NCBI GenBank assembly: GCA_045545475.1
Contig: JAZQAZ010000017.1
Location: 1-64,000 of the forward strand
DNA length: 64,000 bases
Reading direction: 5' to 3'
Source: Clostridia bacterium
GTDB taxonomy: Bacteria; Bacillota; Clostridia; CAKSNL01; HGM11501
Below the pieces are notes generated by a model. That model had not been told where the DNA came from and searched no databases. It saw nothing but the letters and a program-made list of their open reading frames with translations. How positions within the stretch are numbered: the stretch's first letter is position 1; each line of letters starts with the position of its first letter. The position numbers were made by a program, and so were the translations under genes. Of the stretch, positions 25,856 to 28,669 are shown piece by piece.

Positions 25856-26194
25856 ATGAATATACAAATTTTCGGAAAAAGTAAATGCTTTGATACTAAA
25901 AAAGCGGAACGATATTTCAAGGAACGAAGGATAAAATATCAGCTTATTGACCTTCCTGAATACGGAATGAGTAAGGGCGAATACAATTCGGTTAAAAATG
26001 CCGTGGGTGGCATGGAGGCTTTAATTGATAAGGATGGAAAGGCTTACAAGGATTTGTATATAGAATATACCCGTCCTTCCGATGTGGAGGCAAAGCTTCT
26101 TGAAAATCCGGTGCTTTTCAAAACACCTATTGTCAGAAACGGTAAAGCTGCAACGGTTGGCTACCAGCCAGATATATGGAAAACCTGGGAATAA
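25856..26194 (+). CDS. ArsC/Spx-family protein
   Basis: MNIQIFG..KCFDTKKAERYFKER, KTPIVRNG..ATVGY. Confidence 0.88.
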   Translation: MNIQIFGKSKCFDTKKAERYFKERRIKYQLIDLPEYGMSKGEYNSVKNAVGGMEALIDKDGKAYKDLYIEYTRPSDVEAKLLENPVLFKTPIVRNGKAATVGYQPDIWKTWE

Positions 26195-26204
26195 TAAGTT
26201 ATAT

Positions 26205-26236
26205 AAAAATCCTGAAACGAAAGTTTCAGGATTTTT
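26205..26236. terminator. Bidirectional intrinsic terminator
   Basis: AAAAATCCTGAAAC-GAAA-GTTTCAGGATTTTT. Confidence 0.85.
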
Positions 26237-26356
26237 GTTATATTCTGCTTTATTCGCAGAGTTATATTTTTGATAAATCAAAAACGATATTTTATCAGCA
26301 GTAGACTAATAAAGCTGAATGGAGTTCATTTGAATTCCATTCAAAACACCCCAACA
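26205..26356 (-). ncRNA. Candidate ~150-nt small RNA
   Basis: Minus-strand TTGACA(26391-26386)-N18-TATGAT(26367-26362) with extended TG; three hairpins; ends at the bidirectional terminator; no ORF over 12 aa following an RBS. Confidence 0.4.
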
Positions 26357-26465
26357 CATTAATCATAACACAAAAGACTATGCTTTGTCAATAAAAATAT
26401 GTTCAAATTTACCATATTCTCCGTTTTATACAAAAATAAATTGTGAACTTTTAACAGTTTGCCTA

Positions 26466-26494
26466 TTGAAATAGCTACTTTTTCATGCTATAAT
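26466..26494 (+). promoter_or_regulatory. sigmaA promoter with no substantial ORF before the next terminator
   Basis: TTGAAA-N17-TATAAT with extended TG. Confidence 0.75.
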
Positions 26495-26500
26495 AAACTC

Positions 26501-26937
26501 ACAAAGAAGAAAGAGAGGTAAGGTCCAATGAGATAGTAAGAAAGCTCTTTTAAGAAGGTACAATTTAATAGTGAAGGTTAAAAATAATTCAATGTAAGTA
26601 AGTTGGTTAATTTATTGGTAGGAAAATAAACAGTAAAGAAGGAATTTGCTAAGAAGAATTGAAGACACGGCGGTGTGATACGCTTTATATATAAGTGATT
26701 GTTAATCGGCCAGGAAACCTTCATTAAGAGAGCTATCGGAAATTCGCCTTTTGCAAAACGACAAAACATAAATCCATCCCGTTGGGGAAGTGAAAGAGTG
26801 AGTAGTTTTGGAAGAATTGAATGAGCAAAGGGCAGATTAAGAAAGCGAGGATTAAAAAAGATGTTAGATATCAAGAGTGAACAGAAATAACCCTTGGTCT
26901 TGCGTAAAGAAGCATGATCAGGGGTTATTTCTATTTT
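26501..26937 (+). ncRNA. Candidate ~435-nt structured non-coding RNA of unrecognised family
   Basis: Own promoter and terminal hairpin; no + strand ORF in the ORF track; long-range helices 26543-26559/26717-26734 and 26746-26754/26825-26833; recurrent AAGAA. Confidence 0.6.
26883..26937 (+). terminator. Long terminal hairpin / terminator of the candidate ncRNA
   Basis: AGAAATAACCCTTGGTC / GATCAGGGGTTATTTCT 17-bp stem with two G-U pairs, then ATTTT. Confidence 0.7.
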
Positions 26938-27028
26938 AAAGAAAAATCGCAACTTTGTCCTGTAACCGCAATATTTTCATGTTGAAAAAAATCCCTATAT
27001 ATGGTAAGATTAAAGTGGCAAAGATACA

Positions 27029-27057
27029 TTGACATTAAATAGGGCAAAAGCTATAAT
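27029..27057 (+). promoter_or_regulatory. Perfect-consensus sigmaA promoter
   Basis: TTGACA-N17-TATAAT; a second candidate TTGAAA-N17-TAAGAT lies at 26982-27010. Confidence 0.8.
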
Positions 27058-27076
27058 AATTCCGGAGGTGATTTTA

Positions 27077-28669
27077 ATGAAAGTTTGCGTTATACAACCT
27101 TTGTATCCTACAGATTATTCAAGATCTGACGAAATGTTTTTATGGGAAATGGAAGCTATGGATAAATGTGACGGAAGTATGGATTTAATCGTGCTACCGG
27201 AATCTACCGACGTTCCTTGCTTCGCAAAAACAAGAGAAATGGCTCTTGAAAGCTATAAAAAATTTAACAGAAAACTTATCGAAAAAGCATCAGAAACTGC
27301 GAAAAGATGCAATGCGGTACTTTTTATAAATGCATATAAGGAGGTAGAAACCGGTCTCCGTAATACTACCTACGCTTTCGACAGAGAAGGCAAAATTGCA
27401 GGATATTATTTCAAGCAGCATTTGACACCCGGCGAAACAAGCGAAAGAAAGCTTGACAGCGACTATACCTTTGAATTTTCCGATACCGACATTATCACAA
27501 TCGACGGTGTACGTTATGCATTTTTAACCTGTTACGACTTTTATTTTTATGAGGCGTTTGCGAAAATCGCACTTGCACGCCCCGATATAATAATAGGATG
27601 CTCCCATCAGCGTTCCGATACGCACGAGGCACTTTCCATTATGTCAAAGTTCCTTGCTTATAATACCAACGCTTATGTGGTTCGTTCTTCCGTTTCCATG
27701 AATGAAGAAAGCACCATCGGTGGCGGAAGTATGGTGGTGTCACCGAAGGGAGAAATGCTTCTCAATATGGGAAGCAGGGTTGGTATGGAGTGCGTAGAAA
27801 TCAATCCCGAAGAAAAATATTATAAGCCAGGAGGTTTCGGAAACCCCGACATGGCTCATTTTGAATATATAGAAAAGGGACGCCGTCCCTGGAAATACCG
27901 TCCTGCGGGAAGTGCAATCGTAAAGCACGATGCTCTAATGCCATATCCCAGAATCTGTGCACACCGTGGATTTAACACTATAGCACCCGAAAACAGTATG
28001 CCTGCCTTTGGTGCGGCCATCGCCTTGGGTGCCGAAGAGATAGAGTTTGACCTTTGGTACACAAAGGACGGGGAAGTGGTATCGATTCACGATCCCGATC
28101 TTGACAGGGTGTCTGATGGTACTGGCAAGGTTTATGACCATACATATGAAGAGCTTTTAGCCTACGATTTCGGAATAAAATATTCCGAGGAATTTAAAGG
28201 ACTTAAGATAATCAAATTTGAAGAAATTCTTGAAAAGTTTGCCTGCCACGTAATTATGAATATTCATATTAAAAGCGTGGACAATGTAAATCCTCTGCCT
28301 GAGGAACATCTTAAAAAGATAATTGACCTTATAGATAAATATGACTGTGCGAAATACTCCTACTTTATGACGGGTAATGATGCGGTTCTTTCTCAGCTCA
28401 AGACTCTGGCACCCGATATATGCCGTTGCTGCGGCGGAGGGGATGCACCTTTAGAAATGGTTGAGCGCGGATTAAAATACGGCTGTAAGAAAATTCAGCT
28501 TGTAAACTGGGCATTTAATAAGGAAATGATTGATAAAGCCCACGAGAATGGAATGCGATGCACGATTTTCTGGGCAGATGAAACAGAGCAGGCGAAAAAA
28601 TATCTTGATATGGGTGTTGACGTAATTTTAACCAACGACTATCAGAGAATATCGCAGGTTATAAAGTGA
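27077..28669 (+). CDS. Carbon-nitrogen hydrolase (nitrilase fold) fused to glycerophosphodiester phosphodiesterase
   Basis: N-half LIVLPE, YFKQHL, TCYD (E-K-C triad); C-half CAHRG, APENS, EFD, IHD, ILTND; GGAGGTG RBS. Confidence 0.85.
   Translation: MKVCVIQPLYPTDYSRSDEMFLWEMEAMDKCDGSMDLIVLPESTDVPCFAKTREMALESYKKFNRKLIEKASETAKRCNAVLFINAYKEVETGLRNTTYAFDREGKIAGYYFKQHLTPGETSERKLDSDYTFEFSDTDIITIDGVRYAFLTCYDFYFYEAFAKIALARPDIIIGCSHQRSDTHEALSIMSKFLAYNTNAYVVRSSVSMNEESTIGGGSMVVSPKGEMLLNMGSRVGMECVEINPEEKYYKPGGFGNPDMAHFEYIEKGRRPWKYRPAGSAIVKHDALMPYPRICAHRGFNTIAPENSMPAFGAAIALGAEEIEFDLWYTKDGEVVSIHDPDLDRVSDGTGKVYDHTYEELLAYDFGIKYSEEFKGLKIIKFEEILEKFACHVIMNIHIKSVDNVNPLPEEHLKKIIDLIDKYDCAKYSYFMTGNDAVLSQLKTLAPDICRCCGGGDAPLEMVERGLKYGCKKIQLVNWAFNKEMIDKAHENGMRCTIFWADETEQAKKYLDMGVDVILTNDYQRISQVIK

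Follow-up and report, generated by a model that had tools for sequence, protein, structure and literature searches.

A putative free-standing RNA of Clostridia that combines a conserved fold with two very small open reading frames

We analysed a 64,000-nucleotide (nt) stretch of a Clostridia bacterium assembly (GCA_045545475.1, contig JAZQAZ010000017.1, positions 1 to 64,000 of the forward strand), hereafter the window. An intergenic gap of about 880 nt, between an ArsC-family gene (25856-26194) and a gene for a CN_hydrolase-GDPD fusion protein (27077-28669), holds an element that most likely is a free-standing RNA of about 430 nt (about 26501-26937, + strand), with predicted discrete ends, that would be both structured and translated. 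An earlier note on this DNA had described a free-standing structured non-coding RNA. The element indeed appears free-standing, large, structured and outside the Rfam database; the term non-coding was not supported, since it carries two tiny open reading frames (ORFs), each led by a Shine-Dalgarno (SD) sequence, and the second of them (ORF2) is under coding selection. The parts of the element, all on the + strand, are as follows.

26466 to 26494, + strand: sigma-A type promoter, with the -35 box TTGAAA at 26466-71, a 17-nt spacer, TG at 26486-7 and the -10 box TATAAT at 26489-94.
26510 to 26519, + strand: extended Shine-Dalgarno 1 (SD1), AAAGAGAGGT, 9 nt before the first start codon (ATG1) and about 10 nt from the predicted transcription start.
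26528 to 26536, + strand: mini-ORF, ATG AGA TAG, about 27 nt from the predicted start, with an in-frame TAA at 26537-39.
26543 to 26734, + strand: helix P1 (26543-26559 with 26717-26734), which closes the 5' domain and starts 6 nt after the mini-ORF stop.
26665 to 26694, + strand: mini-pseudoknot or two-state motif, ACACGGCGGTGT-GAT-ACGC...ATATA, in which helix a pairs 26665-8 with 26673-6 and helix b pairs the loop 26669-72 with 26681-4.
26746 to 26833, + strand: P2 domain, with P2 (26746-54 with 26825-33), P2b (26762-7 with 26805-10) and the hairpin P2a (26777-80 with 26785-88, loop GTTG).
26840 to 26851, + strand: extended Shine-Dalgarno 2 (SD2), AGAAAGCGAGGA, 10 nt before the second start codon (ATG2), nearly invariant in 110 aligned 3' modules and predicted to be mostly unpaired.
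26861 to 26890, + strand: ORF2, encoding MLDIKSEQK (ATG TTA GAT ATC AAG AGT GAA CAG AAA TAA, 9 codons plus stop).
26883 to 26937, + strand: intrinsic terminator, with its 5' arm at 26883-99, an apical loop with GTAAAGAA, its 3' arm at 26916-32 and then ATTTT (17+3 pairs in the fold).

The case for translation comes from comparison of the 3' modules. The family consensus of ORF2 is M-[LI]-D-x-K-x-x-x-K-stop, with 8-10 codons, and the peptide MLDIKSEQK itself is encoded at 89 of the 129 loci recovered with the ORF2 pattern. That pattern fixed most of codons 1-6; the unbiased evidence is provided by sequences found with the pseudoknot motif or with R1, a covariance model of the 3' module built from the 110 aligned modules (alignment A1). 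The variants found in this way, with no ORF2 probe, were MLDIKNEQK, (M)MLDIKSEQK, MKLDFKSEQK, MKLDLKSEQK, MLDIKIEEE, MNTDFKSNRK, MLDTKNHEK, MLDTKSEQK, MIDIKSEQK, MLDNKNDQK and MIEPKQEEQK. The frame spans 8-10 codons in every one of them, and insertions and deletions are whole single codons. Synonymous changes were observed at Leu (TTA/CTA/CTC), Asp (GAT/GAC), Ile (ATC/ATT), Lys (AAG/AAA) and Gln (CAG/CAA). Codons 8-9 and the stop of ORF2 lie in the 5' arm of the terminator, and the stop does so in all 110 aligned modules; at codons 8-9 the CAG/CAA and AAA/AAG changes covary with the opposite arm and remain synonymous. The stop is always TAA, TAG or TGA, facing TTA, CTA or TCA, and never a sense codon. 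Synonymous changes, in-frame indels and the use of stop codons only, despite covariation of the stem, show that the ORF2 frame is under coding selection; structure alone does not account for this combination. The terminator stem ACCCTTGA/TCAAGGGT is found again in other families, as is an A/G-rich loop.

A second translated module is predicted at the 5' end. SD1 reads AGAAAGGAGGT or AAAGGGTGAT in relatives, forms that would complement the 3' end of 16S rRNA over more bases than a usual site does. Behind it, a mini-ORF matching the regular expression ATG-N6-stop was found at 108 of the 129 loci, at a constant distance from the promoter. Its predicted products, encoded by ATG plus one or two codons plus a stop, include MYR (26 loci), MNR (10), MEK (8), MRK and others, and the final sense codon is mostly Arg or Lys; mini-ORFs of two codons occur at loci L039 and L040 and in Vescimonas. 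The whole SD plus mini-ORF module is present in two tandem copies at L033, L038, L047, L068, L090, L112 and L035 and in three at L196, repeats that would fit a dosage-type protective role. On the metagenome contig L196, the three copies of AGGAGGAT(A/C)GTCC(G/A)ATGGGC(C/T)G(T/A)TAA lie about 200 nt upstream of the pseudoknot motif. On another metagenome contig, L240, the 5' half of the element (promoter, mini-ORF, P1 and pseudoknot motif) runs into an apparent ABC-transporter ATPase coding region and not into P2 and ORF2, which is either a rearrangement or an assembly chimera.

Partition-function folding predicted both ribosome-binding sites to be open, which makes constitutive translation probable. 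We considered whether the segment before ATG1 masks SD2 over a long range and rejected this, the mean probability of such pairing being 0.03. Complementarity between the base that precedes CC and the base that follows GAGG was counted in 69 of 88 distinct sequences (TA 39, AT 30, TT 12, AA 7; 95 distinct sequences in all, 7 of them outside the two classes), a count that is confounded by lineage.

The signals of an independent transcription unit were largely as the earlier note had read them. In a promoter scan the sigma-A promoter had 11 of 12 consensus matches plus the TG extension, which places the predicted transcription start near 26501; relatives have the same promoter layout, at a constant distance from the mini-ORF. 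The long terminal hairpin was recovered as described (26883-26899 paired with 26916-26932), and a simple terminator scan of the window did not list it (26883-26932). Stops are frequent on the + strand, where the longest stop-free stretch is 41 codons. Contigs from four gut metatranscriptome RNA libraries of one study span 26508-26919; examples are a 330-nt contig at 26547-26876 with 1 difference and a 76-nt contig at 26508-26583 with 0. Loose contig ends cluster at 26855 and 26896, and therefore ORF2-module versions of other organisms are present in the same libraries. The flanks 26100-26468 and 26920-27300 have no contig cover in these four libraries, which says nothing on transcript ends.

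The + strand at 26500-26937 has a folding energy of -104.7 kcal/mol (z = -5.2; none of 100 shuffles folds as well), compared with z = -2.6 for the - strand. The minimum-energy fold contains both long-range helices proposed earlier (26543-59/26717-34 and 26746-54/26825-33) and the nested stems CAAAAC/GTTTTG and TCCC/GGGA. Structure could not be called on a whole-length MAFFT alignment, which had too many gaps, and helices were tested on segment alignments only. P1 pairing is kept in genomes G009 and G004 through changes on both strands. A helix of at least 6 pairs, spanning at least 40 nt and starting no more than 12 nt after the mini-ORF stop, occurs in 54 of 73 relatives versus 26 of 73 shuffled sequences, and P1 starts a median of 9 nt past that stop in relatives.

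Covariation, which the earlier note had made a condition of its proposal, was seen for the mini-pseudoknot, P2 and P2a. The family form of the mini-pseudoknot is AACACGRCGGTGT-N-ACGY-N-ATATAGA. In alignment A2 (31 sequences), 89.5% of its cells are paired, versus 20-70% when the pairing is slid, and one R:Y pair is GC in 19 sequences, AU in 9, another combination in 2 and a gap in 1. In helix a, two pairs each carry a single compensatory change, and 0 of 500 shuffles reach the covariation score. The two helices share a 4-nt loop and so are either alternative states of the RNA or a highly compact pseudoknot. For P2 and P2a (19 sequences), 93.2% of cells are paired versus 40-59% when slid, 7 of 14 pairs are changed on both sides, and again 0 of 500 shuffles reach the covariation score; P2a is the TCCC/GGGA stem, and P2b was seen by eye only.

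The sequence before ATG1 divides the family into two subtypes, a TCC type (...TCC), to which the window belongs, and an ACC type (GGTGATACC). The mini-pseudoknot motif occurs in 35 of 58 TCC-type members, in 0 of 37 ACC-type members and in 2 of 9 members with neither sequence. Both subtypes have the two ORF modules. Since the pseudoknot core is confined to one of the two, the universal parts of the family are the two translated modules and not the fold.

The element is one member of a large family, found in at least 120 species-level Clostridia genomes as a single copy per genome, with a patchy distribution within genera; the homolog search that the earlier note had called for thus yielded many relatives. 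With blastn, matches were obtained in 9 of 61 related genomes, one of them spurious (29 nt). Three genomes of the same genus hold full-length copies (96, 93 and 77% identity), and two more genomes of the genus and two other families match at the two ends only. In species-representative genomes the ORF2 pattern gave at least 120 stretches; among the matches listed, all are Clostridia metagenome-assembled genomes (MAGs), with names such as Acutalibacteraceae, Oscillospiraceae, Ruminococcus, Fimenecus, Monoglobaceae and similar, from gut and rumen. A looser pattern matched 13 of 401 genomes sampled evenly from the class, four of them as AAAAG forms, of which G186 was confirmed as the element and the other three may be serS starts. 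In another family, R1 at E<=1e-12 detected single copies of the element in 16 of 38 genomes, spread over 6 of 12 genera; in the window's genus, 6 of 12 genomes carry it. Applied to five additional genomes of that genus or its family (G005, G008, G011, G010 and G013; 89-97% complete), R1 gave only serS starts or plain terminators and no element. G000 has a single copy, and the isolate Vescimonas fastidiosa MM35 carries the element unannotated, at about 65.2-65.5 kb of NZ_AP023416.1. An origin from a phage or plasmid was rejected: phage records and viral contigs gave no match, and the sole 'plasmid' match is an 861-kb Vescimonas replicon.

Known RNA families were compared by covariance models. 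No Rfam 15 model matched the element at gathering score, as the earlier note had anticipated for RNase P, transfer-messenger RNA (tmRNA), signal recognition particle RNA and T-box RNAs; the same holds for OLE, ROOL, GOLLD, raiA and 6S. At E<=10, apart from terminator-like matches at the 3' hairpin and a weak snoRNA-like match of 54 nt, the element body gave nothing, and 10 homologous loci gave no match to the element, only an unrelated T-box and a tRNA elsewhere. A tmRNA was rejected on further grounds: ARAGORN reported nothing at 26000-27300, a canonical tmRNA lies on another contig (159.5 bits), and ORF2 has an SD and an ATG. Both the canonical tmRNA and 6S were located elsewhere in the genome. 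The only match at gathering score in the window is an S10-Clostridia ribosomal protein leader (RF03136, 39794-39871, + strand, 40.6 bits). A literature search for the peptide word MLDIKSEQK and for the concept returned nothing relevant; candidate lists in the supplements of microbiome papers may hold it.

We propose that the element RNA serves the conserved nonapeptide as a stable message loaded with ribosomes, or as a dual-function RNA, a reading that we would accept about as readily as reject. In this working model, the consensus promoter would give a discrete, strongly transcribed RNA that ends at the strong intrinsic terminator. Ribosomes would load at SD1, terminate quickly on the mini-ORF and, by analogy with known 5' stabilisers, protect the 5' end against 5'-to-3' decay; they would also abut the base of P1. 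The conserved fold (in the window's subtype P1, the mini-pseudoknot and P2/P2a) may act as a spacer, scaffold or sensor, conservation of the fold being what the alignments show. SD2 would then drive ORF2, and translation would be physically coupled to the 3' hairpin because the ORF2 stop sits in the 5' arm of the terminator.

Several points weigh against this proposal. The stabilising role of the mini-ORF would be one by analogy, and the case for ORF2 translation consists of comparative sequence signs. The nonapeptide has no linked gene and no obvious target. Its positions 4 and 6-8 vary (I/T/N/F/L/P; S/N/I/Q), leaving only M, L/I, D and K5 near-constant. The nucleotides ATGTTAGATATCAAGAG are conserved beyond coding need, and therefore this stretch may have a role at the RNA level. 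The two subtypes differ in the middle region. The RNA-library contigs, all from one study, cannot show ends, strand or level, and DNA may occur in RNA libraries. Finally, the element appears dispensable, because it is absent from all five of the further genomes of the same genus or family.

The main rival takes ribosome occupancy itself as the signal, and we regard it as possible but doubtful. Occupancy at the mini-ORF and ORF2 would set the fold, 3' end formation or half-life, so that a trans-acting RNA (a protein or RNA sponge) is adjusted in amount to translational capacity, to antibiotics or to starvation; where the stop lies within the hairpin, termination could be slowed by a nascent MLD.K peptide. 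The invariable position of the ORF2 stop within the terminator 5' arm and the start of P1 at a median of 9 nt past the mini-ORF stop are consistent with such sensing, as are the terminator stem and loop sequences, kept across families in a way unusual for a plain terminator, the excess conservation of ORF2 nucleotides and the tendency of both ORFs to end in Lys or Arg. A precedent of ribosome-controlled termination and stabilisation is provided by mccA (PMC4231749). However, the alternative hairpin that such a switch could use, formed by ORF2 codons 4-6 with the terminator 5' arm, is weak: it has a mean of -4.8 kcal/mol versus about -32 for the terminator region and a mean z of -0.74 (15% of sequences below -1.64), and it is missing in some lineages. 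A strong antiterminator was rejected on this basis, leaving only a minor possibility. There is also no conserved element 3' of the terminator to switch on, the 5' module is not predicted to mask SD2, and the sensor would be without a known target.

More speculatively, and in our estimate unlikely, the family could represent a new class of 'ribosome-engaged' RNA, abundant in gut and rumen Clostridia, in which the mini-ORF and the terminator-embedded ORF2 would let fold, 3' end and lifetime read out the translation state, or in which the ORFs deliver M-L-D-x-K-x-x-x-K as an intracellular or host-directed signal, with the pseudoknot core sensing a ligand or protein.

It is improbable that the element is a purely structural non-coding RNA, whose fold binds a protein or ligand and whose ribosome-binding sites and ORFs protect the ends or are incidental. 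The covariation in the mini-pseudoknot, P2 and P2a, the fold z of -5.2 and the cover by RNA-library contigs all agree with it, and so does a metagenome scan in which the compact pseudoknot motif was found only in this RNA: it was unique to it among AT-rich matches, and the other matches were GC-rich or coding chance matches. Against this account, the ACC-type members lack the pseudoknot motif and retain both ORF modules, and structure alone leaves the stop, frame and synonymous changes of ORF2 unexplained.

A cis-acting leader or attenuator of the CN_hydrolase-GDPD fusion gene is very hard to sustain. A terminator at the end of a short ORF is what a classic attenuator looks like, and the same downstream gene follows the element in G000, G002, G003 and G004 of the genus. 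However, that gene has its own promoter, as the earlier note had pointed out, with 12 of 12 matches at 27029-27057, and in G009 and G007 of the same genus a convergent gene lies directly past the terminator. Over 129 loci, by crude ORF calling, the nearest downstream ORF of at least 90 codons is convergent at 62, co-directional at 48 and absent at 19, and the downstream protein families differ between lineages. Because neighbour genes differ between genomes and are often convergent, the element appears to be free-standing and not a leader, in agreement with the earlier note.

Least credible of all is a decayed gene or a relic of the 5' part of serS, suggested by the shared MLDIK start of ORF2 and seryl-tRNA synthetase (SerRS), the G000 SerRS start MLDIKFVKENPE and the true serS starts that are R1's next-best matches in element-free genomes, since SerRS stays MLDIK or MLDIR where ORF2 is MKLDFK, MKLDLK or MNTDFK (no co-variation), the sole serS match among the pattern loci is preceded by a normal T-box leader with no relation to the element, covariation and conservation over many families are unlike a pseudogene, and a 124-codon - strand frame is broken in close relatives. 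We treated the serS likeness, as mimicry or remnant, as coincidence. Only 69 codons of the - strand frame (26578-26952) are left in the copy of G002, which is 96% identical, and the longest - strand stop-free stretch has a median of 63 codons over 73 relatives; the frame is an artefact of a pyrimidine-rich strand.

Further features surround the element. A divergent - strand promoter lies at 26362-26391 (TTGACA, 18 nt, TG-n-TATGAT; 11 of 12 matches), and in 41 of 91 loci such a promoter is found at a fixed distance (59-90 nt) from the -35 box of the element. Past this promoter come a conserved WTGTTGG start and, mostly, a hairpin with a T run within 20-60 nt, which suggests a second, very small - strand RNA forming a divergent unit with the element, in the window from about 26355 to 26203 (about 150 nt). 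No contig of the four RNA libraries covers this putative transcript, and pairing between it and the element RNA was rejected (mean z -0.14, 40 loci). The stretch between the divergent promoters (26411-26463, + strand) is conserved and reads ATTCTCCGTTTTATACAAAAA ... TTGTGAACTTTTAACAG in the window; relatives have AAATTTCTSTG...ACAAAA and AACTTTGTACAAAAT, partly palindromic. It likely serves both promoters as a regulator-binding or UP-like site. A 16-pair hairpin with flanking A and T runs (26203-26238), immediately past the ArsC-family gene, resembles a bidirectional terminator; its weak, sub-threshold Rfam matches to the unrelated sRNAs rli38, Yfr10 and MicC reflect terminator likeness only. 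The downstream gene (27077-28669, + strand) encodes a carbon-nitrogen hydrolase domain (residues 26-229) and a glycerophosphodiester phosphodiesterase domain (296-521), an unusual pairing.

Standard annotation is blind to this element, as gene callers skip 3- and 9-codon ORFs and RNA catalogues have no model for it; it nonetheless occurs across gut and rumen Clostridia (at least 120 species-level genomes), and versions of it occur in gut metatranscriptome libraries. To our knowledge, the nonapeptide, if made, would be among the smallest conserved bacterial coding frames known, and the mini-ORF would be a rare natural example of a conserved 'minigene'. The layout of a strong 5' ribosome site, a structured core and an ORF in the terminator offers a test bed for the effects of ribosomes on RNA stability and termination in non-Bacillus Firmicutes. 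A covariance model of the family would improve MAG annotation and reduce the number of unexplained metatranscriptome reads, and the cultured carrier V. fastidiosa MM35 makes the family experimentally tractable.

Among known systems, OLE, ROOL, GOLLD, raiA, T-box, tmRNA and 6S RNAs resemble the element in being several hundred nt long, in having a multi-helix covarying fold and in appearing in RNA libraries, but none has two SD-led ORFs and none matches it by covariance model. Leader-peptide attenuators comprise the trp and his leaders and the antibiotic-sensing leaders of erm, cat and ABC-F genes. Like the element, they have a short ORF, headed by a strong ribosome-binding site, that lies within a terminator or just ahead of it, an arrangement found for ORF2 in the 110 modules, whereas the element has no regulated downstream gene, no run of regulatory codons and no strong antiterminator. 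SR1/SR1P of B. subtilis and RNAIII/hld of S. aureus are dual-function small RNAs with peptides of 26-39 residues. Like them, the element appears to be an independent structured transcript that encodes a small peptide, with its own promoter and terminator and RNA-library contigs over 26508-26919; unlike them, it would encode a peptide of 9 residues plus an ORF of 2-3 codons, and it has no sequence or Rfam relation to either. The conserved fold would be compatible with a regulatory activity of the RNA itself, by base pairing or protein binding.

The STAB-SD of cryIIIA and the ermC leader are 5' ribosome-binding-site stabilisers, in which bound or initiating ribosomes block 5'-to-3' decay. SD1 has the features of a STAB-SD, an SD-like sequence near the 5' end with predicted extended complementarity to 16S rRNA. 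On the Bacillus hbs mRNA, a strong SD is reported to block RNase J1 (PMC5737220). The element likewise has a strong extended SD close to the 5' end of a Firmicute RNA; it differs in that this SD precedes a conserved ORF of 2-3 codons and can be tandem, and stabilisation would hold for the element by analogy.

According to Zukher et al. (2014, PMC4231749), the heptapeptide transcript mccA of the microcin C operon is a short and abundant RNA that ribosomes bind and stabilise, and ribosome binding induces its termination. Both it and the element have a very short ORF (7 codons in mccA, 9 in the element), a short transcript and an intrinsic terminator directly after the ORF. The mccA gene leads an operon encoding enzymes that modify its peptide, whereas the element has no linked gene. 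The peptide of the element does not end in Asn, and a structured leader of about 330 nt and a second mini-ORF are added. In place of a heptapeptide ending in Asn beside an MccB-type enzyme, the family has peptides of 8-10 residues with K, E, R, N or G at the C-terminus, and varied neighbours, MccB itself not having been searched for. Termination of mccA is controlled by the ribosome; in the element, where the alternative hairpin is weak, such control would hold by analogy only. What is new here is the family and its architecture of a minigene, a fold and an ORF in the terminator, and what is known in outline is the translated small RNA and the peptide message with ribosome-coupled stability.

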